Positions 1,382 to 13,012 of a stretch of DNA of 13,090 nt are shown one piece after another (the stretch's first letter is position 1; every line of letters starts with the position of its first letter). This DNA is from Candidatus Latescibacter anaerobius SCGC AAA252-E07. GTDB lineage: Bacteria; Latescibacterota; Latescibacteria; Latescibacterales; Latescibacteraceae. The DNA lies in the NCBI GenBank assembly GCA_000403035.1, contig AQSL01000144.1, positions 7,853 through 20,942 on the forward strand, in the 5' to 3' direction. Under the pieces are notes generated by a model. That model saw only the letters and a program-made list of their open reading frames with translations. It was not told where the DNA came from and ran no database searches. A program made the translations under genes and the position numbers.

Positions 1382-1762
1382 ATGGATTGGAAAACAATCG
1401 ACTTCAAGAGTCAAAAGCCGGGCAAAAAGGGCGAGGTTTTGAATAACCAAATATATAGATGTGGCTTCTGTGGTGCGAAGGGATTTATGCCTTCCAGGAA
1501 GAGCACAAGGTGCCCTGTTTGTTTAGGTGTCGGGACTGTAAAGGCTCAACCTCCAGTTGTAATCTGTGCTTACTGTAATGGTTCAGGAAAATCTCATTTA
1601 AATACTGATCTTACCTGTATTGTCTGTGGTGGAAAAGGGATTGTAGGTGTACATACTAAGCAAGTCGAGATATGCCCTACATGCAAAGGTAGAGGTAGAG
1701 AAAAAGGTGGGAATCTTCCCTGTTTAATGTGCAGAGGAAAAGGAGTTATCTATAAGAAGTAA
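1382..1762 (+). CDS. Standalone DnaJ-type zinc-finger protein with six CxxCxGxG repeats (126 aa)
   Basis: Six evenly spaced motifs are present: CGFCGAKG, CPVCLGVG, CAYCNGSG, CIVCGGKG, CPTCKGRG and CLMCRGKG. This is the DnaJ central Cys-rich repeat type (DnaJ has four). The protein has no J-domain of its own. Confidence 0.8.
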   Translation: MDWKTIDFKSQKPGKKGEVLNNQIYRCGFCGAKGFMPSRKSTRCPVCLGVGTVKAQPPVVICAYCNGSGKSHLNTDLTCIVCGGKGIVGVHTKQVEICPTCKGRGREKGGNLPCLMCRGKGVIYKK

Positions 1763-1794
1763 TTATACCTTAAAAAGGCTATAGGAGGTAAGGT

Positions 1795-2328
1795 ATGGCA
1801 AAGGGAAAAAAGAAAAAGGAAGAAGATTTGGACATTGATTTTGGAATAGGAAAATTAAGTCTGGGGGGTTTATTTAAAGGTATTGAGAAATTAGTCGACC
1901 TAGCAGCAGATTTAGAAGAAGCAGGTGGCGAAATCAAAAAAGAAGGTGAAATAGACCTGAGCCATCTTAAAGAAGGCATGAAAGGTGTGTTTGGCTTCTC
2001 TATAAAGACGATGGCGGGGGAAAAGACAATTGTTGAGCCTTTCGGTAATATTAAGAAGACTCCTAAAGGACCCAAGGTTGAAGAGGAAAGAGAACCTATG
2101 GTTGATATTTTTGATGAAAAGGAAGAGGTTGTGATTATAGCAGAAATGCCAGGGATTAACGAAGAAGACATCTCGATGGATTTTAAAGGAGATATATTAG
2201 AGGTAAAAGCGGTGTATAAGGATAGAAAATACTATAAAGAAGTTTTGTTACCGGCAAAGGTGAAATCAGAGACCCTGACCTCAACTTATAAAAATGGTAT
2301 ATTAGAAGTAAGAATAAGGAAATGCTAA
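1795..2328 (+). CDS. Hsp20/alpha-crystallin-domain small heat-shock protein (GvpH-like), 177 aa
   Basis: Strong SD (AGGAGGT) precedes the ATG. The C-terminal half (PMVDIFDEKEEVVIIAEMPGINEEDISMDFKGDILEVKA...YKEVLLPAKVKSETLTSTYKNGILEVRIRK) is an alpha-crystallin domain with the characteristic terminal I/V-x-I/V-like motif. The N-terminus is charged and disordered. Confidence 0.8.
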   Translation: MAKGKKKKEEDLDIDFGIGKLSLGGLFKGIEKLVDLAADLEEAGGEIKKEGEIDLSHLKEGMKGVFGFSIKTMAGEKTIVEPFGNIKKTPKGPKVEEEREPMVDIFDEKEEVVIIAEMPGINEEDISMDFKGDILEVKAVYKDRKYYKEVLLPAKVKSETLTSTYKNGILEVRIRKC

Positions 2329-3264
2329 GTGGCATTAATTGGATTAAAAGAAGGTGCCTTAAAGTTAATTCTTTTGGGGGGAAAGGGTGGTGTAGGAAAG
2401 ACGACCTGTTCCTCAAGCACAGGTCTTTACTTAGCTAAAGATTTTAAGACGCTTCTTATCTCGACAGATCCAGCACATTCTTTATCTGATAGTTTAGGCC
2501 AGAAAGTTGGAGATGAGATAGTAGGAGTAAAGGGTGTAGAGAACCTAAGTGCTCTTGAAGTAAGCGCGGAAAAGGCTTTTTCTAAATTTAAGGTTGAATA
2601 TGAAGACCAGATAAAGAAAATCTTGGATACTTCTACGTATTTAGGCCAGGAAGACATTGATTCCATTTTCGCCTTGCCTATCCCGGGAATGGATGAGGTA
2701 ATGGGGTTTAAGACTATAGTTGATCTTATTGAAGAGGCAAGGTTTGATAAATATATTGTTGATACTGCACCCACTGGGCATGCGTTGAGACTTCTGACTT
2801 TACCAGACCTCTTGGATGACTGGATTAAAGTGATGGCAAAGATGAGATGGAAATATAGGTATATGGTTGAAACTTTTGCTGGAAAATATAAACCTGATGA
2901 AGGCGATGATTTTCTATTAAGTATGAAAAAGACGGTAAAGAGAATAGAAGGCCTTCTTAAGGATCAAAGCAGGTGCGAATTTATAGCAGTTACCATTCCA
3001 GAAGATATGGCAATTTTGGAAACGGAGAGGCTGATAAATAATCTGAATAACTATGGAATAAAGGTAAGGCAATTAGTTATAAATAATGTCATGGAATCGA
3101 GGGATTGCGGATTTTGTCAAGAACGAAGAAAAGAGCAAGAAAAATATATAAACCAAATAAAAAGAAAATTTAGCAATTTAAAAACAACAATTATAGCTTT
3201 ACAACCTCGAGAGGTTAAAGGTATAGACGCGTTAAATAATTTTAAGGAGTTGCTATTTCAGTAA
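2329..3264 (+). CDS. ArsA/Get3-family P-loop ATPase (anion-transporting ATPase-like), 311 aa
   Basis: The deviant Walker [11 protein letters not shown], the A-loop/switch [11 protein letters not shown] and switch [14 protein letters not shown] are all hallmarks of the ArsA/Get3 family. A C-terminal CGFC pair is also present. The GTG start at 2329 directly abuts the TAA stop of the Hsp20 gene, suggesting translational coupling. Confidence 0.85.
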
Positions 3265-5429
3265 TGATGAAAAAAAACACAAACCTTACTTTAAAGGTAA
3301 AAGAGGCCTTACCAAAAGATGTGGGAAGGGCAATCGCCAGGATTGACCCAGAGGATATGAAGGCCTTTTGTTTAGAGGTAGGTGATATCATCGAGATTGA
3401 AGGAAAAAGAAAAACACCAGCAAAAATAATGCCCTGTTATACTGAAGAAAGGGGTAAAAAGATTATACAGATAGACGGTATATCGAGAGAAAACGCTCAA
3501 ATAGGGCTGGATGAAAAAGTGGAGATTCATAAAATTAACCATAAACCTGCTAGTAAAATTACTCTCACACCTTTAACCGTATCAACTCTCTTACAAAGAG
3601 ATACAGATGCTAAGTATATCAGTTCGCTTATAGAGGGATTGCCTATAATCCGTGGTGATAGGGTTAGAGCTACGCTATTCGGCTCAAAGTCCTGCGATTT
3701 TAAGGTAGTAGATACCATACCCGAAGGTGTGGTATTGGTAAACCCAACTACTTTGATAAGGATGGAGACGAAAGGGGCTGGAGAAGGCAGACCGGCCAAG
3801 ATTTCATATGAAGATATCGGTGGACTTACTCCCAAAATTCAGAGGATTAGAGAGATGATAGAACTTCCACTGAGATATCCTCAGGTTTTTGAAAGATTGG
3901 GGATTGATGCGCCGAAGGGAGTTTTTCTCTATGGCCCACCGGGCACAGGAAAGACCTTAATCGCTCGTGCAGTAGCTAATGAAACAGACGCCTATTTTAC
4001 TCACATATCAGGTCCTGAGATTATGGGCAAGTTCTACGGTGAAAGTGAAGCACGTCTGCGAAGTGTATTTGAAGATGCTAAAAACCATACTCCTGCCATA
4101 ATTTTTATCGATGAAATAGATGCTATCGCGCCAAAGAGAGAAGAGATGGGTGGAGAAAAGCAGGTTGAACGCAGGGTAGTAGCTCAGCTTTTAGCCCTGA
4201 TGGATGGTTTGGAATCTCGAGGGCAGGTTATTGTTATTGGAGCTACCAATATCCCCAATACAGTTGACCCTGCTCTTCGTAGACCTGGTCGGTTTGATAG
4301 AGAGATACCCATCCCTATCCCTGATAAAAACGGAAGATTTGAGATACTTCAGATTCACACAAGGGGTATGCCTTTAGCAGAAGATGTCAGTGTAGAGAAG
4401 TTGGCTGGGATCACCCATGGATTTGTGGGTGCGGATTTGGAGGCATTAGCCAGAGAAGCGGCAATGAGCGCGTTGAGAAAGATTTTACCTAAAATCACCT
4501 TTGAATTGGCAGATATTCCTTATGAGAGTTTGATGAAGTTAGAAGTAACCATGGATAATTTTTTAGAGGCCATGAAAGAGGTTGAGCCATCGGCCATAAG
4601 AGAAGTATTTGTGGAAGTGCCGGATGTAAAGTGGGAAGATGTAGGAGGTTTAGAAAATATAAAAGAAGAGTTAAAAGAAGCTATAGAGTGGCCATTGAAA
4701 TATTCTGATACCTTTAAAAAGGCAAATACTAATCCTCCCAAAGGGATCCTACTTTATGGAATACCTGGAACAGGAAAGACACTTTTGGCCAAGGCAGTGG
4801 CTAATGAAAGCGGAGTTAATTTTTTATCCATTAAAGGGCCACAACTTATCAGCCGCTATGTTGGAGAGTCAGAGCGAGGGGTAAGAGAGATATTTAAGAA
4901 GGCAAAACAGGTAGCGCCAACAATACTTTTTATTGATGAGATAGATAGCCTTGTGCCCAGACGTGGTTCAGGTTCTACCGATTCTCATGTTACAGAAAGG
5001 GTAATAAGTCAATTTCTAACTGAGATGGATGGGATTGAAGAGCTTAAGGGAGTCGTTGTTTTAGCCGCTACTAACAGGTTAGATATAGTTGATCCTGCCA
5101 TTTTACGGAGTGGTAGATTTGACCTCTTACTTGAGTTGCCTGTGCCAGATGAAAAAACCAGGGAAGAGATATTTAAGATACATACTAAGGATAAACCCCT
5201 TTCTAAAGACGTGGATTTGAAGAGTTTAGCCAAAGAGACCGAAGATAAAGTAGGTTCTGATATTGAATTTATCTGTCGTAAGGCCTCAATGCTGGCGATA
5301 AGAAAATTTATAGAAAATCCGAGAAATAAAGATGAACTCATTATTATTAAGAAGAAGCATTTCGAAGAGGCTATTAAGATAGTAAACGAACAGAAAAAAA
5401 TGGGGGGAGAAGATGGCAAAGATTATTGA
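3264..5429 (+). CDS. Cdc48/p97/VAT-like double-ring AAA+ ATPase with N-terminal double-psi-barrel domain (721 aa)
   Basis: The N-domain [38 protein letters not shown] resembles VAT-N/Cdc48-N. The D1 domain has [17 protein letters not shown] and a second-region-of-homology arginine motif RRPGRFDRE. The D2 domain has GIPGTGKT and ILFIDEIDS. The ATG at 3264 overlaps the TAA stop of the ArsA-like gene (TAATG). Confidence 0.9.
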
Positions 5430-5618: not shown

Positions 5619-5885
5619 ATGGGATTTGTAGAATTTGAATACCTATTAGTAATCAGTTTAGTAGTTTCATTGGTATTAGCATATTTGCCGAAGGTAAAGA
5701 TTACACTCCCGGGAGGGATTACGACAAATATTATCGTTAGCTATATTGGAGCAAGGCTTGGTGCAGTTGTGTTTGGGAATTGGCTATTTTTAACCTTTCA
5801 GGGTATTAGTATTTTGCCAGCAATATTGGGAGCGATAGTCGCGATTCTCTTAGGCAAGGCCTGTGTAGAGTGCTCTAAGAAGTAA
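5619..5885 (+). CDS. Small integral membrane protein (88 aa), resembling the GlsB/YeaQ/YmgE (transglycosylase-associated) stress membrane-protein family
   Basis: A GAGGTG SD lies 4-5 nt upstream of the ATG. The protein has hydrophobic helices with Gly-zipper-like motifs (IGARLGAVVFG, ILPAILGAIVAILLG) and a C-terminal CVEC pair. It is a paralog of the 12707-13012 product. Confidence 0.65.
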   Translation: MGFVEFEYLLVISLVVSLVLAYLPKVKITLPGGITTNIIVSYIGARLGAVVFGNWLFLTFQGISILPAILGAIVAILLGKACVECSKK

Positions 5886-5966: not shown

Positions 5967-6992
5967 GTGGCTGAAACAGAAAAATATATTTACGGAATTA
6001 TAAATTCTAATGAAGCATTATACTTTGGTTCTTTTGGAACAACTGCATGTGAGGAGGTTTATACTATTCCTTATCAAGATATTTCAGTAGTAGTAAGTAA
6101 CTCTGAAATGGTTGATTACACCATTTTACCCAAGGATGCAGTAGTCAGACATCTGTTTAAGCATCAGCAGGTAATCGAAAAAGTTATGGAGGGCTTTACA
6201 GTAATCCCCATGCGATTAGGAACATTTGCATATGATGAAGATGAAGTAAGATATATTTTGGCCAAAGCCTACCTAATGGTTAAGGACATATTTAATAAGA
6301 TATCTGATAAAATCGAGATTGATGTTGTTGCCACTTGGGGTGATTTTGATTCCGTCCTTAAAGTGATTGGAGAAGAAAAGGAGATTAAGGGATTCAGAGA
6401 AAGTCTTTTAACCAATCCTAAAGAGATAACCGTAGACAACCAGATGAAAGTGGGAGCTATGGTCAAAAACCACTTATATAAAAAAAGAGAAAAATATACT
6501 CTAGAAATACAAACATCCCTAAGCAAAATTATCCAAGGAATCAAAGTTCATGAGCTTATGAATGATGAGATGGTCTTAAATACTGCCTTTTTAATAAATA
6601 AAACTAAACAGAAAGAATTTGATAAAAAAATAGAAAAACTAAATACAAAATTTAATAACGAGTTGAACTTTAGATGTGTTGGTCCGCTACCTCCTTATAG
6701 CTTTTACACACTCGAGATCAAGAAGTGGCAATTTGAAGAGATAGATTGGGCAAGAAGAAAACTTGGGCTCCAAAACAACTTTGCAACTAAAGATGAAATA
6801 AAAAAAGCCCATCAGACAATGGCGTTTACTTTTCACCCTGACAAAAATCCCAATACTTCTGGCATAGAGAGAGAATTCGATGAGATAACAAAGGCTTATA
6901 AATTGTTGTGTGAATATTGCGAGGGAGATAGTTGTTCTTTTAGTGAGGAAGAATTCAAAAAGAACGCAATATTAGTCAAGGTAAGAGATTGA
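5967..6992 (+). CDS. gvpF: GvpF/GvpL-family gas vesicle protein fused to a C-terminal DnaJ J-domain (341 aa)
   Basis: The N-terminal ~250 aa carry GvpF/L motifs: KYIYGII, VxxHxxVIEKVMEGFTVIPMRLGTF, NTAFLINK and RCVGPLPPYSFY. Residues ~258-315 (WARRKLGLQNNFATKDEIKKAHQTMAFTFHPDKNPNTSGIEREFDEITKAYKLL) form a canonical J-domain with the HPD motif at nt 6834-6842. The tail CEYCEGDSCS is Cys-rich. GTG start with a GAGGAG SD. Confidence 0.85.
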   Translation: MAETEKYIYGIINSNEALYFGSFGTTACEEVYTIPYQDISVVVSNSEMVDYTILPKDAVVRHLFKHQQVIEKVMEGFTVIPMRLGTFAYDEDEVRYILAKAYLMVKDIFNKISDKIEIDVVATWGDFDSVLKVIGEEKEIKGFRESLLTNPKEITVDNQMKVGAMVKNHLYKKREKYTLEIQTSLSKIIQGIKVHELMNDEMVLNTAFLINKTKQKEFDKKIEKLNTKFNNELNFRCVGPLPPYSFYTLEIKKWQFEEIDWARRKLGLQNNFATKDEIKKAHQTMAFTFHPDKNPNTSGIEREFDEITKAYKLLCEYCEGDSCSFSEEEFKKNAILVKVRD

Positions 6993-6993
6993 T

Positions 6994-7764
6994 ATGGAAA
7001 AAGAAGGAAAATATATCTATTGTATTATCGCGACATCACAAGAGAGAAATTTTGGTCCTATTGGAATAGGTGAAAGAGGCGACGATGTCCTAACCATCGG
7101 CTATAATGACCTAAGCATGGTTATGAGCAATCATCCTATAGTTAAATTTGTTGTTAATCGAGAAAACATGTTAGCTCATGAGAAAGTAATTGAGGAAGTG
7201 ATGAAGGAATTTGATGGTGTGCTTCCGGTCAGGTTTGGCACGATTGCATCCAGTGCCGATGAGATAAGGAATCTTTTGGACAGAAGATATAGAGAATTTA
7301 AGACGCTGTTACGAGATATGGACCACAAGGTAGAATTAGGTGTTAAAGGCATATGGAAGGATATGGATGTAATCTTTAAAAAAATTGTAGAAGAAAATAA
7401 AGGGATCAAGAAAACAAAAGAGAATATTCAGAACGATAAAGGTAAGAAAAATATTCAAGCCAAAATGGAGATTGGCAAGATGGTCGAGCATGCCTTAGCA
7501 ATAAAGAAGGAAAAAGAGGCGGAAAGTATAGTAAATACCCTTAAAAGAGCAGCTTTTGATTATAAACTCAATAGAACCGCTGGTGATGAGATGTTTATGA
7601 ATGCTGCTTTTTTGGTTGATAAAGGTAGAGAAAAAGAGTTTGATAATATAATGGTTGACTTAAGTAACAAATACAAAGATAGAATAAAGTTTATGTATGT
7701 AGGGCCTTTACCTGTATTTAACTTTGTCAATATTGTCATTTATCCTGAAGAGTGGGAGAAATAA
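6994..7764 (+). CDS. gvpF: GvpF/GvpL-family gas vesicle protein, paralog 2 (256 aa)
   Basis: Carries the motifs EGKYIYCII, NMLAHEKVIEEVMKEFDGVLPVRFGTI, NAAFLVDK and FMYVGPLPVFNF. It starts 1 nt after the stop of the preceding gvpF-J gene. Confidence 0.85.
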   Translation: MEKEGKYIYCIIATSQERNFGPIGIGERGDDVLTIGYNDLSMVMSNHPIVKFVVNRENMLAHEKVIEEVMKEFDGVLPVRFGTIASSADEIRNLLDRRYREFKTLLRDMDHKVELGVKGIWKDMDVIFKKIVEENKGIKKTKENIQNDKGKKNIQAKMEIGKMVEHALAIKKEKEAESIVNTLKRAAFDYKLNRTAGDEMFMNAAFLVDKGREKEFDNIMVDLSNKYKDRIKFMYVGPLPVFNFVNIVIYPEEWEK

Positions 7765-8065
7765 TGGGTCTATCAGGGACAGAGGCAGAGATTATAAATT
7801 GTGTTGCTAAGTTAAGACAGGCGACCAAAGACCAAATAAGAAGAGAGAGGTGGGTTTTTCGTTAGATTATATCGGTTTTTTATGCCGATATTTAGTCAGA
7901 AAAGGTTTCCTGAATTTCTCTGGCGGCTATTATTCTTTGGCAAAGGCAGGGATAAAGATACACCTAGAAGAAGAGCCAGAGATTGATAGAGCGTTACTTA
8001 AGGAAGTTGCTGGCGAGGTTAGCTCAACAGATCGGCAGAGAATTAAAAAAACAATAAAAGGTTAG
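7764..8065 (+). pseudogene. Winged-helix (MarR/ArsR/PadR-like) small transcriptional regulator split by a -1 frameshift in a purine-rich tract (~7840-7855)
   Basis: Frame A (7764-7865) reads MGLSGTEAEIINCVAKLRQATKDQIRRERWVFR*, which is helix 1-2 of an HTH. Frame B (from 7850) reads VGFSLDYIGFLCRYLVRKGFLNFSGGYYSLAKAG..., which is the recognition helix plus wing. Both frames read RRE across aagaagagagaggtggg, so one indel in this run would restore a ~100-aa wHTH protein. The ATG overlaps the gvpF2 stop (TAATG). Confidence 0.55.
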
Positions 8066-8102
8066 ACTTGTCCCAATTAGAGTATTTTCGATAGTGTGAT
8101 AT

Positions 8103-8172
8103 TGGGTTGCTCTGGCAAAAGGGTATATTGATAATACAGTAATAAAAAAACTTTAGCCGGATGAGCAACCCA
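8103..8172. promoter_or_regulatory. 10-bp perfect inverted repeat (TGGGTTGCTC ... GAGCAACCCA) with a 50-nt spacer, in the 192-nt intergenic gap upstream of gvpF3
   Basis: The arms lie at 8103-8112 and 8163-8172. The intervening AT-rich DNA contains TATATT (8124-8129) and TTGATA motifs. This is the largest non-coding gap inside the cluster and is a likely internal promoter/operator region. Confidence 0.4.
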
Positions 8173-8257
8173 TGAGTAAGTTTAGCAGTATTTTCAGTCA
8201 ATTACTGATGATTCCCTTAAGTAAGTTTCTTATTTACGGGATGAAGGCAAGAAATAG

Positions 8258-9025
8258 ATGGAAGTAGCTTTAAAAGAAGGTAAATATATATACTGTATTA
8301 TTGAATCAAATAAGCCTCGTTCTTTTGGTCCTTTAGGTATTGGTGGAAGGGCTGATGAGTTGTATACAGTCTGCTTCAATGGTCTTGCCGCTTGTGTGAG
8401 CAACTCTCCCATAATAAAGTATTCTTGTTTAAGGGATAATATGCTTGCCCATGAAATGGCAATTGAGGAGGTAATGAAGGAATATACAGTCTTGCCAGTT
8501 CGATTTAATACGATTGCTGATGATGAAGAAAAGGTAAAGAAGATATTAGAAATAGATCACGATAGGTTTATAGATGCATTGAAAAATATGGAAGGTAAGA
8601 AAGAACTGGGGCTTAAAGCCATATTTAAAGAAGAAATTATTTATAAAGATATATTAGAAAGGTATGAAGATATAAGGATATTAAAAGAAAAAATAGCTCT
8701 ACTTTCACCCGAAAGAACATATTACCAACGTATGGAAATAGGAAGAATGGTGGAAGCATCTGTACAAAATGAAAGAGAGATCTGCAAAAAGGAGATATTG
8801 GATTCTTTAATACCTTTGGCAGAAGACAATAAAATCAATAATACCTATGGTGAGTTAATGATTTTAAGCGCCGCCTTTTTAGTCAACAGAGACAAAGAAG
8901 TAGAGTTTGACCGGAAGGTTGAGGAATTCAATACAAAATATGGTGATAAAATAAAATTTAAGTATGTGGGAACAATACCGCCATTTAATTTTGTAAATCT
9001 TGTCATTGAAACAGGAAAATATTAG
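8258..9025 (+). CDS. gvpF: GvpF/GvpL-family gas vesicle protein, paralog 3 (255 aa)
   Basis: Carries the motifs EGKYIYCII, NMLAHEMAIEEVMKEYTVLPVRFNTI, SAAFLVNR and FKYVGTIPPFNF. Confidence 0.85.
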   Translation: MEVALKEGKYIYCIIESNKPRSFGPLGIGGRADELYTVCFNGLAACVSNSPIIKYSCLRDNMLAHEMAIEEVMKEYTVLPVRFNTIADDEEKVKKILEIDHDRFIDALKNMEGKKELGLKAIFKEEIIYKDILERYEDIRILKEKIALLSPERTYYQRMEIGRMVEASVQNEREICKKEILDSLIPLAEDNKINNTYGELMILSAAFLVNRDKEVEFDRKVEEFNTKYGDKIKFKYVGTIPPFNFVNLVIETGKY

Positions 9026-9027
9026 AT

Positions 9028-9264
9028 ATGTTTTTAATCGATGACATATTACTTGCGCCTTTAAAGGGCGTGATTTGGATTGGGGAAAGGCTTAACGAGA
9101 TAGCAGAAAAGGAATTCTCCGATGAGGGGCGTATAAAAGAGAAACTTATGGAATTGCAACTGAAATTCGAAATGGATGAAATAAGTGAAGAAGAGTATAA
9201 TAGGCAGGAGAAAGAACTTTTAGAGCGCTTAAATGCAATTAGGAAAGCAAAGGAGGAGGTGTAA
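9028..9264 (+). CDS. gvpG: Gas vesicle protein GvpG (78 aa)
   Basis: MFLIDDILLAPLKGVIWIGERLNEIAEKE...LMELQLKFEMDEISEEEYNRQEKELLERLNAI matches the GvpG pattern: an N-terminal PxxGxxWIxE motif and LQxxFxxGEISEEE. Confidence 0.8.
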   Translation: MFLIDDILLAPLKGVIWIGERLNEIAEKEFSDEGRIKEKLMELQLKFEMDEISEEEYNRQEKELLERLNAIRKAKEEV

Positions 9265-9265
9265 A

Positions 9266-9532
9266 ATGGCTAATATTGAAGAGGCAAGAAAAGCAGTGGC
9301 AGAATTTTTAAGGAAAACTCTCAATGTTAAAGATGTAAAGGTAATTAAGACGGCAAAGGCTGGTGATGGCTGGGAAACTGAGGCTGAAGTATATGAAGAA
9401 AGCTCGTTCATAAAGTCACTCGGTCTTCCCACAAGAGTCCAGGATAGGAATATTTATGCGGTCAAACTAAATAGCAGTTTAGAAGTTGATTCCTATGAGC
9501 GCAAGGGTACAGAAGAGCAAGAGGAAAGATAA
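9266..9532 (+). CDS. gvpO: GvpO-like gas vesicle protein, paralog 1 (88 aa)
   Basis: ATG at 9266 follows an excellent SD (GGAGGAGGTG). The preferred start is downstream of the track's 9233 start, which overlaps gvpG. The architecture AVAEFLRKTL...DGWETEAEVYE...YAVKLNSSLEVDSYERK parallels GvpO (..DGW..V.V.E...Y.V..d..G.l.gY.R..). It is a paralog of the 11490-11744 product. Confidence 0.6.
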   Translation: MANIEEARKAVAEFLRKTLNVKDVKVIKTAKAGDGWETEAEVYEESSFIKSLGLPTRVQDRNIYAVKLNSSLEVDSYERKGTEEQEER

Positions 9533-9534
9533 AA

Positions 9535-10344
9535 ATGGAGGGATTATATCTTTATTGCATAAGAGAAAAAATAGAAGATGCTCCTGGAATTTCTGTAAAA
9601 GGAATTGATGGAAAGGGAGAGGTTTTTATCCTTGTTCATGGCCAGTTAGAAGCAGTGGTAAGCAAGGTTTCCTTAAAAGAATTCAGTTCTGAAGAGATTC
9701 AGAAAAAAGCCCAGGAAGACTTAAACTGGATTAAAGAAAAAGCCCTTCTCCATCAAAAGGTTATAGAAGAAGCAATGAAAAAGAACGATAAGCTCTTAGA
9801 TCTAATTCCTATGAGGTTTGGGATCATCTTTAAAGAGGAAACAAAATTAAAACAGACTCTATATAAAGATTATACCAAGATTAAAGAAACATTAGAGAGA
9901 ATTCGGGGAAAACAGGAATGGAGCCTAAAGGTGTATTTAAAAGACAAAGAAAAATTTGAAGAAGTGGTAAAAGAAAAGAATCCACTAATAAAGGAAAAGG
10001 AAAAAGAGATAACAAATTTACCTGAGGGTATGGCCTTTTTTATGGAAGAGGAGTTAAAAGAGGTTATCTTTAAAGAAGTAGATAAAGATTTAAACGATTT
10101 TGTAGAGGTTGTTTTTGAGGATTTTAAAAAGCAAGCCATGGATTCCGTTAAAAATAAGATTTTGGAAAAAGAATTAACCGGAAAACCTGAGCATATGATT
10201 TTAAACGCTGCCTATTTAATCCCTGAGGAAAAGGTTGAGAATTTTAAAAAAGAGGCTGAAATTCTCAATCAAAAGATACAAGAAAAAGGGATTTACCTTG
10301 AGTATAGCGGTCCTTGGCCACTTTATAATTTTACATCTTATTAA
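9535..10344 (+). CDS. gvpL: GvpL/GvpF-family gas vesicle protein, paralog 4 (269 aa, more divergent and GvpL-like)
   Basis: Carries the motifs LYLYCI, AVVSKV, LLHQKVIEEAMKKNDKLLDLIPMRFGII, NAAYLIPEEK and YSGPWPLYNF. The middle is K/E-rich. Confidence 0.8.
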   Translation: MEGLYLYCIREKIEDAPGISVKGIDGKGEVFILVHGQLEAVVSKVSLKEFSSEEIQKKAQEDLNWIKEKALLHQKVIEEAMKKNDKLLDLIPMRFGIIFKEETKLKQTLYKDYTKIKETLERIRGKQEWSLKVYLKDKEKFEEVVKEKNPLIKEKEKEITNLPEGMAFFMEEELKEVIFKEVDKDLNDFVEVVFEDFKKQAMDSVKNKILEKELTGKPEHMILNAAYLIPEEKVENFKKEAEILNQKIQEKGIYLEYSGPWPLYNFTSY

Positions 10345-10348
10345 ACTT

Positions 10349-10882
10349 ATGATTAAAAAAACTGATAATGTAACATTAGTAGATGCCTTAGATAAGGTTT
10401 TAGAGAAAGGCGCAGTTATCACTGGGGATATAGTGATAAGGGTAGCTGATGTGGATCTTGTCTTTTTAGGCTTACGGCTTATCCTTACATCAATTTCCAA
10501 GGCCGAAGAACTGTCTGGCAAGAGTTTCAGTGATCCAGATAAAGAGTTTACCCCTGAAGATATAGAATATATACAGAAATTACAAAGGGAGATAAGAAGA
10601 GCCGAAGAAAATATTCCTAAACTTATTGATCTAGGCAATCCTAAAAAGACAGAACAAGGTTTAGCTAAATTAATTTTAACCCTTGTTGAACTTATAAGAA
10701 GACTTATGGAGAAAGAAGCCTATAGGAGAGTAAAGAGAGGAAAGTTATCCAATATAGAAATTCAAAAATTGGGATTAAGCCTTAAGGCTGTTCAAAAAAA
10801 GATAAAAGAAGTTCAGACAATCTTTGGTATTGAGGATGAAGAGCTAAATTTAGACTTAGGTCCTTTAGGAAATTTAATGTAG
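10349..10882 (+). CDS. gvpK: Fusion of a GvpA/GvpJ-like N-terminal domain with a GvpK C-terminal domain (177 aa)
   Basis: The N-terminus MIKKTDNVTLVDALDKVLEKGAVITGDIVIRVADVDLVFLGLRLILTSISKAEEL is a GvpA-family core. The C-terminus GLAKLILTLVELIRRLMEKEAYRRVKRGKLSNIEIQKLGLSL...EDEELNLDLGPLGNLM matches the GvpK signature (LxLTxVELLRxLxERQAxRR...LGPLG). The ATG is 4 nt after the gvpL stop. The track's upstream extension (10235) overlaps gvpL and is rejected. Confidence 0.7.
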   Translation: MIKKTDNVTLVDALDKVLEKGAVITGDIVIRVADVDLVFLGLRLILTSISKAEELSGKSFSDPDKEFTPEDIEYIQKLQREIRRAEENIPKLIDLGNPKKTEQGLAKLILTLVELIRRLMEKEAYRRVKRGKLSNIEIQKLGLSLKAVQKKIKEVQTIFGIEDEELNLDLGPLGNLM

Positions 10883-10892
10883 GAGAAAAAAG

Positions 10893-11156
10893 ATGCATAA
10901 AGAAGGAGCTAAAATAAATTGTGTAACATTTCAAAAGCAAGAAAAGGTAATAAAGGATATTACTGATAAGATTAATATGGCTAAGGGAGTGCGAGAGAAA
11001 GCGATATTTGCCGAAGAATTACAGAAAGAAGTAGATATGCTTTTAACTTGTCCGGATTATGATGATAAAAAATTAGACTGTAAGAATTGTCGTTTCATTG
11101 CAAATTTGCGTAAGAAAACCTCATGTTTAATTATAAAAGCTAAAAAGTTAGTATAA
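10893..11156 (+). CDS. Hypothetical small Cys-containing protein (87 aa)
   Basis: An AGGAG SD lies 7 nt upstream. Cysteines sit at positions 10, 53, 62, 65 and 77 (CPDYDDKKLDCKNCRF...C). No family was recognised. It is tightly packed between gvpK and the gvpJ-like gene. Confidence 0.5.
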   Translation: MHKEGAKINCVTFQKQEKVIKDITDKINMAKGVREKAIFAEELQKEVDMLLTCPDYDDKKLDCKNCRFIANLRKKTSCLIIKAKKLV

Positions 11157-11173
11157 GAAAGTCGGAGATAATC

Positions 11174-11479
11174 ATGTCAGAACAAAAAATGATGCACGCC
11201 ACAAATGCTACTAATCTTGCTGATATCTTAGAGCGGGTATTAGACAAGGGAATTGTAATTGCCGGAGATATCCAGATTAAAATTGCCGATGTTGAACTTT
11301 TAACGATAAAGATAAGGTTATTGGTTGCCTCTGTGGATAAGGCAATGGAGATGGGTATAAACTGGTGGCAAACTGATAGTTTTCTTTCCTCAAAAGCAAA
11401 AGAGGCTGAGATAGAAAATGAAAACACAGAGCTGAAAAAGAGATTAGGAAAATTAGAGGAGAAGATTAAAAGTGCATAA
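11174..11479 (+). CDS. gvpJ: GvpA-family minor gas vesicle protein (GvpJ/GvpM-like), 101 aa
   Basis: LADILERVLDKGIVIAGDIQIKIADVELLTIKIRLLVASVDKAMEMG is the GvpA/J/M core. It has a coiled-coil C-terminal tail. GGAG SD lies 6 nt upstream. Confidence 0.85.
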   Translation: MSEQKMMHATNATNLADILERVLDKGIVIAGDIQIKIADVELLTIKIRLLVASVDKAMEMGINWWQTDSFLSSKAKEAEIENENTELKKRLGKLEEKIKSA

Positions 11480-11489
11480 GGAGCAGAAA

Positions 11490-11744
11490 ATGGAAATTAA
11501 AGATATTGTGGAAATTGCTAAGGCGGGGTTGGTTCAACTTACCGGATTTAGTTCTCCCACTGCGATAGGAATAAACAAAGAAGCGGATATATGGCACATT
11601 ACTGTAGAAATAATAGAAAAACCTTCGGAAGCAGTTAATCTGGAGCTTCTTGGAATTTATGATGTCCGAATAGATGCTTCTGGAAATCTTCTTGGTTATG
11701 AGAAAATAAGGATGAGGAAGCGTGGTGATGTTCAAAAAGGGTAA
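11490..11744 (+). CDS. gvpO: GvpO-like gas vesicle protein, paralog 2 (84 aa)
   Basis: AAGGAG lies 6 nt upstream of the ATG at 11490. The C-terminus VNLELLGIYDVRIDASGNLLGYEKIRMRKRGDVQKG closely matches the GvpO C-terminal motif (L.asY.V..D..G.L.gY.RvRRYERG). Confidence 0.65.
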   Translation: MEIKDIVEIAKAGLVQLTGFSSPTAIGINKEADIWHITVEIIEKPSEAVNLELLGIYDVRIDASGNLLGYEKIRMRKRGDVQKG

Positions 11745-12569: not shown

Positions 12570-12706
12570 ATATGTTTGCCAATTGAAGTATATTTCCACA
12601 CATTAACCGGGGAGATACTACCGAGTACAGGGAACATCACGAGCCGCCCGTTTCCGAAATAATTCCTTGAATCCCGGAGAACTCATAACTGAAGGGGGTG
12701 AAAGGT

Positions 12707-13012
12707 ATGATTTATGTGGGGTTTTTACCGTTTTTGTATCTGTTAATCATCGGGATAGTAGTTTCTTTGATACTGTTTTTTGTGCCGAAGATCACGGTTA
12801 AACTTCCCGGAGGGTATCCCGTCAATTTAATTGCTGGCTATGTCGGTGCCTGGGTAGGAACGCCTGTATTTGGCAAATGGGAGTTTTTGACCCGCGGTGA
12901 GATAAGTATTATCCCTGCTATACTGGGTGCTATCGCGGCGATTCTCTTGGCTAATTCCTGTGCAGAATGCTGTAGGAAATATGGAGAAAAACAGACAGGA
13001 CAACAAGGATAA
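12707..13012 (+). CDS. Small integral membrane protein (101 aa), second GlsB/YeaQ/YmgE-like paralog
   Basis: The ATG at 12707 is 6 nt after AGGGGGTGA. The track's GTG at 12698 is less likely. The product aligns with the 5619-5885 product (VPKITVKLPGGYPVNLIAGYVGAWVGTPVFGKWEFLT...IIPAILGAIAAILLANSCAEC versus LPKVKITLPGGITTNIIVSYIGARLGAVVFGNWLFLT...ILPAILGAIVAILLGKACVEC). Confidence 0.7.
   Translation: MIYVGFLPFLYLLIIGIVVSLILFFVPKITVKLPGGYPVNLIAGYVGAWVGTPVFGKWEFLTRGEISIIPAILGAIAAILLANSCAECCRKYGEKQTGQQG

Follow-up and report, generated by a model that had tools for sequence, protein, structure and literature searches.

In the characterised gas vesicle systems, minor GvpA-like proteins and GvpK are usually separate, as the sequence-only reading of this locus had stated. 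In the stretch of 13,090 nucleotides analysed here (the window), a single gene of a gas vesicle (gvp) cluster encodes both. The locus therefore raises the question of whether this gene is real, which GvpA paralogue it joins to GvpK, and whether the two domains form one functional unit or were joined by a merely harmless loss of a gene boundary.

The gene (10349..10882, + strand) is an ORF of 177 aa plus stop, running from an ATG at 10349 to a TAG stop at 10880-10882, and it encodes both peptides quoted in the sequence-only reading. Some databases carry an alternative 194-aa call, whose TTG start falls, in a different frame, within the conserved C-terminal end of the GvpF encoded upstream. As this TTG overlaps the GvpF C-terminus, and the position of the ATG, 4 nt past the stop of the upstream gvpL/F, is kept in close relatives, we preferred the 177-aa form. 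No Shine-Dalgarno sequence was found upstream of the ATG, and a promoter/terminator scan around the gene returned fewer sites than in shuffled sequence. We infer that the fusion is translationally coupled to the upstream gvpL/F.

Two domains were detected by Pfam searches, for which the gathering cut-off is 25 for both PF00741 and PF05121. The N-terminal GvpA-family domain, assigned below to the S/M type (aa 9-56; 10373..10516), matched PF00741 (Gas_vesicle) at aa 9-47 with 48.9 bits, covering model positions 1-39 of 39. The GvpK domain (aa 97-177; 10637..10879) matched PF05121 over its whole length with 95.9 bits (model positions 5-85 of 85). When the halves were searched separately, they scored 52.8 bits (PF00741) and 95.8 bits (PF05121), so that the claim of a GvpA-family N-domain followed by a clear GvpK domain was borne out. 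The protein ends in LDLGPLGNLM, which contains the GvpK C-terminal motif L-[ND]-L-G-P-L-G, and L170, G171, P172 and G174 of this motif are near-invariant among 150 sequences. The other invariant or near-invariant residues of the GvpK domain are L105, L108, V109, L110, R117, E121, R126 and R127. A search of the other ORFs of the window with PF05121 gave no second match, and the fusion is thus the sole GvpK within the window.

The fusion gene is real and under purifying selection. An identical fusion ORF was present in four independent assemblies from different projects, namely GCA_000398625.1 (NCBI single-cell), two ENA metagenome assemblies and Logan (SRR3951894). Among 30 loci from species-representative genomes, 27 gave a full-length alignment in a single frame, and another two ended at contig edges. 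Against these 27 loci, pN was 0.06-0.26 and pS 0.52-0.90, with the N-domain, the connecting segment and the GvpK domain all constrained; for residues 51-96 the values were 0.02-0.36 and 0.46-1.03, respectively. Synonymous sites were near saturation and non-synonymous differences were few, which indicates that selection has maintained the frame across deep divergence. Although the unfused neighbours differ little from the fused state (a single in-frame stop in Spartinivicinus, overlapping frames in Nocardia) and errors do occur, as in an ArsA gene that is split in the single-cell assembly L031, the reading that a lost stop codon or a frameshift in assembly or sequencing merged two genes in this contig has next to no probability left and appears effectively refuted by the identical 177/194-aa ORF in the four assemblies, the one continuous frame in each of the 27 homologous loci from different MAGs, the more than 360 database proteins with the same architecture, and the conservation of frame and linker at near-saturated synonymous sites.

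An AF2 model of the fusion was built on 150 diverse fused homologues (pLDDT 82.9, pTM 0.71). In the GvpA-like unit it placed alpha1 at 10-20, beta1 at 22-32, beta2 at 35-46 and alpha2 at 49-56, with block-mean pLDDT of 83-87. Profile comparison of the alignment with solved GvpA structures gave matches to 8GBS (E 3.4e-9) and 7R1C (E 1.8e-8), and 7R1C and 8GBS were also the top-ranked, albeit weak, Foldseek matches in the PDB (E 0.14-0.22). By both the model and the profile match, the N-domain has the alpha1-beta1-beta2-alpha2 fold of a shell subunit. The GvpK domain was modelled as helices 100-130, 135-159 and 163-166; it had no match in the PDB by profile or Foldseek, there being no solved GvpK. 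The connecting segment (aa 57-96; 10517..10636) consists of a loop at 57-68 and a confident 24-residue helix at 69-92 (block-mean pLDDT 84-91); P63 in this segment is near-invariant. The sequence-only reading had described an acidic linker of ~35 aa. A linker is indeed there, but it measures ~49 residues between the Pfam borders and is only mildly acidic (residues 51-96: 12 D/E against 8 K/R, pI 4.65).

What this segment consists of is suggested by plasmid pA of Spartinivicinus ruber, on which a 65-aa 'gas vesicle protein' of GvpS type is followed by a 110-aa GvpK in the order L/F-G-S-K-J. The pair is collinear with the window protein, with 35% identity over all 177 aa including the connecting segment. 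There, gvpS and gvpK (L116 4989-5525) are in frame with each other, with a stop codon and two further codons between them, whereas in the window they are fused. A read-through product would have 178 aa, with ~43 residues between the Pfam domains compared to 49 in the window. From this collinearity, helix 69-92 corresponds to an N-terminal extension of the free-standing GvpK. The 'linker' thus appears to combine the end of GvpS, a short C-terminal tail, with the helix that opens GvpK, and to contain no inserted spacer; one base change would suffice to fuse the Spartinivicinus pair. On the same plasmid, IS630 and IS6 transposases adjoin gvpJ (L116 6188-7895).

The window covers most of one gvp cluster on the + strand, where all the genes given here lie; GvpN is cut at the window start. 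The fusion is flanked by GvpN, four GvpL/F paralogues, GvpG, GvpJ and GvpO, which is the gas vesicle setting in which GvpK belongs. No gvpA, the major shell gene, was found within the window; it presumably lies upstream of the truncated gvpN. Directly before the fusion, a gvpL/F paralogue (GvpF4; 9535..10344; PF06386, 188 bits) takes the gvpL position of L-S-K clusters. After it comes X87 (10893..11156), an 87-aa Cys-containing ORF without Pfam or NCBIfam match that many related loci share at 37-76% identity, and whose slot is the one that gvpX has in the Serratia cluster gvpA2-gvpK-gvpX-gvpA3. The next gene (11174..11479) is a free gvpJ-type paralogue of 101 aa carrying GINWW (PF00741 63.6 bits; best NCBIfam match halo_GvpJ, 53 bits). 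Two GvpO-like genes are present: the one at 11472-11744 passes the Pfam cut-off with 47 bits, and the one at 9233-9532, with 22 bits against a cut-off of 25, is kept at 41-85% identity in related loci. These loci retain the order CDC48, three GvpF, GvpG, GvpO-like, GvpF4, fusion, X87, GvpJ and GvpO, and their best-conserved proteins are the fusion and GvpJ.

The cluster has further features of its own. A suite of chaperones and ATPases is embedded in it at 1382-5429 (+), comprising a DnaJ-type CXXCXGXG zinc-finger protein (1382-1762), an Hsp20/GvpH-like protein (1795-2328), an ArsA/Get3-like ATPase (2329-3264) and a CDC48 double-AAA ATPase (3264-5429). The ArsA-like gene is an intact 311-aa ORF in the window and appears as two overlapping CDSs in L031 (2365-3301; GCA_000398625.1), probably through a frameshift error of that assembly. 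The first of the four GvpL/F paralogues carries a C-terminal DnaJ J-domain and is a second natural fusion (5967-6992; PF06386 185 bits, PF00226 46 bits). Its architecture is repeated in the identical-cluster loci L031 and L033 and would imply recruitment of Hsp70 to the GvpF/L platform. Paralogous small membrane proteins are encoded inside and after the cluster (5619-5885 and 12698-13012), and these scored 16 and 24 bits against Transgly_assoc (PF04226), for which the cut-off is 25.3.

The region 5967-11744 of the window recurs with the same gene order in loci L001-L029, in which the fusion protein is 63-89% identical, from MAGs labelled with more than 10 phyla. Subject to possible mis-binning, these labels include Omnitrophota, Aminicenantes, Elusimicrobia, Planctomycetes, Cloacimonetes, Desulfobacterota-type lineages, Verrucomicrobiota and Saccharibacteria/Patescibacteria; the occurrence of gas vesicles in Patescibacteria would deserve attention. 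As synonymous sites are saturated, any transfer was not recent. In other assemblies, the identical cluster is closely followed by genes for a DDE transposase and an integrase (L031 13565-13957, L032 7315-11491 and L034 6096-8584), which hints that it is located in a mobile region.

Which GvpA paralogue has been joined to GvpK was assessed by a motif census. The J-type motif [GAS][IVL][NDES]WW occurred in none of 361 fused domains of proteins having the GvpA-like domain first. It was present in all 25 of the free paralogues located downstream in related loci and also, as GINWW, in the window's own GvpJ. Pairwise BLAST had been tried for the typing and was indecisive: the N-domain shared 47% identity with the S type and 41-45% with the J type, values that are not decisive alone, and the census superseded it. 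In the NCBIfam ranking the fused domain matched GvpM better than GvpJ and GvpJ better than GvpA, all under their cut-offs; the top match, halo_GvpM, gave 36 bits against a cut-off of 109, this model being haloarchaeon-specific. For halo_GvpJ the score was 24 bits against a cut-off of 125, and the G-I-[ND]-W-W sequence that follows alpha2 in the GvpJ subtype was absent. The fusion also sits in the gvpS slot, after gvpL/F in the order L-S-K-J, as in Nocardia and Spartinivicinus. Bacillus GvpS, Serratia GvpA2 and haloarchaeal GvpM are equated in reviews (PMC9501494; PMC4982088). Motif, profile and gene position together identify the fused domain as a probable GvpS/M-type paralogue, not GvpJ.

The sequence-only reading had called the partner GvpJ-like. 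A J-type paralogue joined to GvpK would accord with the 45% BLAST identity between the fused domain and the window's GvpJ, and with the label 'gas vesicle protein GvpJ' that PGAP gives to members of the family. It would also accord with the adjacency of gvpJ and gvpK in Anabaena. The two genes are likewise neighbours in the haloarchaeal order gvpFGHIJKLM (PMC7688916). Against this stand the separate J-type gene (GINWW, coiled-coil tail) just downstream of the fusion, which is likewise found in 25 of 25 related loci, the lack of the motif in all 361 fused domains, the NCBIfam scores in favour of GvpM (36 against 24 bits) and the position directly after gvpL/F. A fused GvpJ is accordingly improbable; the partner is better placed in the S/M type, and GvpJ stays a free gene 290 nt downstream. 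The S/M type appears to be the paralogue that is almost always fused to GvpK, in either order.

Two-domain homologues have been named inconsistently in the databases, as 'GvpJ', as 'gas vesicle protein K' and, in one JGI record, as 'GvpK/GvpA/GvpJ/GvpM family' (P0009, P0108, P0122, P0335, P0337, P0388, P0410 and WP_142864684.1). The GvpK of Anabaena is now named 'MULTISPECIES: gas vesicle protein GvpJ [Nostocales]' in RefSeq.

We compared the fusion with known systems. In Bacillus megaterium (pNL29, gvpL-S-K-J) the gene slot and order are the same as in the window, but there are two separate polypeptides, and GvpK is regarded as a soluble protein that does not bind to the vesicle; the gvpK ORF of this organism overlaps gvpS (PMC11445434). 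Nocardia nepalensis is also unfused, with the order L-S-K-J and with gvpS and gvpK overlapping in different frames. In Halobacterium salinarum, GvpM is the GvpS homologue, and GvpM and GvpK are encoded by separate, non-adjacent genes (gvpJ-K-L-M); both are essential there, and both bind GvpL (PMC7688916; PMC9501494).

Fused proteins also occur in a cultured bacterium and in a model cyanobacterium. The 219-aa WP_142864684.1 from plasmid pMSC49b of the cultured bacterium Methylosinus sp. C49 has the same domain order as the window protein (PF00741 at 34-72, PF05121 at 129-204). Its gene is followed by a free GvpA-family gene, in a cluster that also has GvpH and CDC48 (L115). It differs from the window protein in its longer linker and 37% identity, and its annotation as GvpJ passes over the GvpK domain. 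GVPK_DOLFA, the 155-aa GvpK of Anabaena/Dolichospermum flos-aquae (identity by exact look-up), likewise holds PF05121 and PF00741 in one chain, but in reversed order, with GvpK at 18-97 followed by the GvpA-like domain at 113-151, and with ~15 residues between the domains compared to 49 in the window. Its fused GvpA-like domain is without the J-type WW motif, and A. flos-aquae also has a free GvpJ. In an NJ tree its GvpK domain lies far from the window family (nearest distance 0.54), which points to an independent fusion event.

To what extent such fusions occur was estimated in two ways. A protein database search with the fusion as query gave 1328 matches, the best 120 of which were 84-100% identical and all had both Pfam domains; an exhaustive search of 50%-identity cluster representatives gave 3602 matches. 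The best 150 of these 3602 comprised 138 proteins with the GvpA-like domain first, 5 with GvpK first, 4 with a GvpA-like domain only and 3 with GvpK only, and in those with the GvpA-like domain first 34-159 residues separated the domains. In all, the architecture of the window protein was found in more than 360 proteins, including some from cultured bacteria. As a fused query favours two-domain proteins in the ranking, GvpK loci were also sampled with the GvpK domain alone. Among the 80 metagenome loci so obtained, 57 had enough upstream sequence, and only 4 of these 57 were fused, in agreement with the earlier statement that the two genes are usually separate. Fusion is therefore a widespread minority state.

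Close relatives may differ in state, as seen for P0205 and the GvpS and GvpK of Nocardia, for P0140 and P0269, and for P0299 and P0376, which indicates that fusion or fission happened repeatedly. In Nonomuraea gerenzanensis, a further cultured bacterium with the order of the window protein, a single-frame match extends over residues 6-177. Reverse-order proteins have short joins of 6-18 aa, explained by the lack of a C-terminal tail in GvpK. We had considered the asymmetry in linker length (6-18 against at least 34 aa) as a geometric constraint and rejected this for the simpler account of end-to-end concatenation of complete proteins, GvpK being extended at its N-terminus but not at its C-terminus. 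The fusion would have arisen in a cluster of the widespread order gvpL/F - gvpS - gvpK - (X) - gvpJ, where the boundary separating gvpS from the neighbouring gvpK was lost and two complete proteins were joined end to end.

The sequence-only reading implied that a fusion of this kind was new. However, the GvpA-like domain in A. flos-aquae GvpK, a GvpK/GvpJMS fusion, has been described as a target for the study of nucleation (Huber & Jakobi 2024, PMC10903477), so that both the fusion and the inference on nucleation are in print, and the architecture stands in RefSeq as GvpJ or GvpK. A literature search for named fusions (gvpJK, gvpSK and similar) and for surveys yielded no account of the order with the GvpA-like domain first. 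What is new here is this order, apparently the commoner of the two among the matches collected; the demonstration of selection on a fusion of this order, together with the near-constant S/M type of the partner in either order; and the one-stop-codon intermediate in Spartinivicinus.

Several experiments bear on what a joined GvpS and GvpK could do. GvpS, GvpK and GvpJ are each needed for the GvpA2-GvpL interaction and have been proposed as vesicle seeders, and GvpK binds GvpG strongly (PMC11445434). In haloarchaea, GvpL is bound by each of GvpJ, GvpK and GvpM, and GvpM is recovered in pull-downs with CBD-GvpK (PMC7688916); the haloarchaeal K-M split-GFP signals are very low (rf 1-5; PMC9501494). 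GvpJ, GvpM and GvpS are absent from the cylinder and have been found in purified bicones (PMC10903477). GvpK is essential in the Halobacterium, Bacillus, Serratia and Anabaena clusters (PMC11445434). As the sole GvpK of its cluster, the fusion must then perform both the essential role of GvpK and the role of the second minor GvpA paralogue.

We therefore consider it likely that the gene encodes a functional single-chain GvpS(M-type)-GvpK protein that arose by loss of the gvpS/gvpK boundary and acts as a covalent part of the seeding complex. The N-terminal alpha-beta-beta-alpha domain would co-assemble with shell subunits at the nascent cone, like the GvpA homologues of the bicones, and the helical GvpK domain, tethered 1:1 on the cytoplasmic face, would engage GvpL/F and GvpG. 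In this way the fusion would represent the GvpS-GvpK portion of the proposed seeding complex, covalently linked at a 1:1 ratio. Incorporation in the cone, binding of these partners and a role in nucleation are inferred by analogy with the unfused proteins. GvpK has been undetected in purified Halobacterium gas vesicles (PMC7688916, PMC11445434), which is hard to square with a GvpK domain covalently attached to a subunit of shell type.

Recurrent fusions in both orders, together with fused and unfused close relatives, are classic Rosetta-stone evidence that two proteins act as one unit. The earlier claims of a 1:1 stoichiometry and of a physical interaction are affected differently. The former is fixed by the covalent linkage. 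For the latter, the Rosetta-stone argument supports one unit, in which the two domains may be in direct contact. Mean-field DCA across the domains (324 sequences, both architectures pooled, Meff 93) gave alignment-edge artefacts as top pairs and did not recover the beta-hairpin used as positive control. The AF2 model of the reverse-order fusion P0186, built from 38 sequences (pLDDT 64.5, pTM 0.53), was too weak for a comparison of domain packing.

A fusion can persist through mere harmlessness. The join could be a neutral read-through, tolerated in adjacent co-translated genes, its domains acting independently on a flexible tether or being proteolysed apart; the plain end-to-end concatenation is what such an event would leave. 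In other families with the GvpA-like domain first the linkers are long (up to 159 aa), variable and of low complexity, and the alternation of fused and unfused states among close relatives, with fusion in the minority (4 of 57), suggests weak selection on the linkage. In the window's family, however, the connecting segment is under purifying selection (the pN and pS of residues 51-96 given above) and is predicted as a confident helix in a model with an overall pTM of 0.71. The recurrence of the S/M type as the fused paralogue, whichever the order, argues for a specific partnership, and the experiments that place GvpS, GvpK and GvpJ in one functional step (PMC11445434) also speak against independent domains. 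On balance we regard a neutral fusion as unlikely, although it retains more weight than the other alternatives, and favour the single-chain seeding protein.

The significance of this protein is limited by the fact that the same inference had already been printed from the Anabaena protein. Nucleation is, nevertheless, the least understood part of gas vesicle assembly, and GvpK is essential in every system studied. The S/M-GvpK fusions offer independent comparative evidence for one unit, which the haloarchaeal interaction assays show weakly, and they may serve as practical reagents, giving a single-chain protein for structural work and reducing the number of genes in acoustic-reporter constructs. 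More tentatively, and as a possibility that we do not favour at present, the gas vesicle nucleus might have at its core an obligate 1:1 heterodimer of GvpS/M and GvpK, with the amphipathic helices of GvpK holding or shielding the hydrophobic hairpin of the S/M protein at the cone tip. If so, the natural fusions in both orders would be ready-made single-chain nucleators that define the topology of the complex, and they could simplify engineered gas vesicle clusters.
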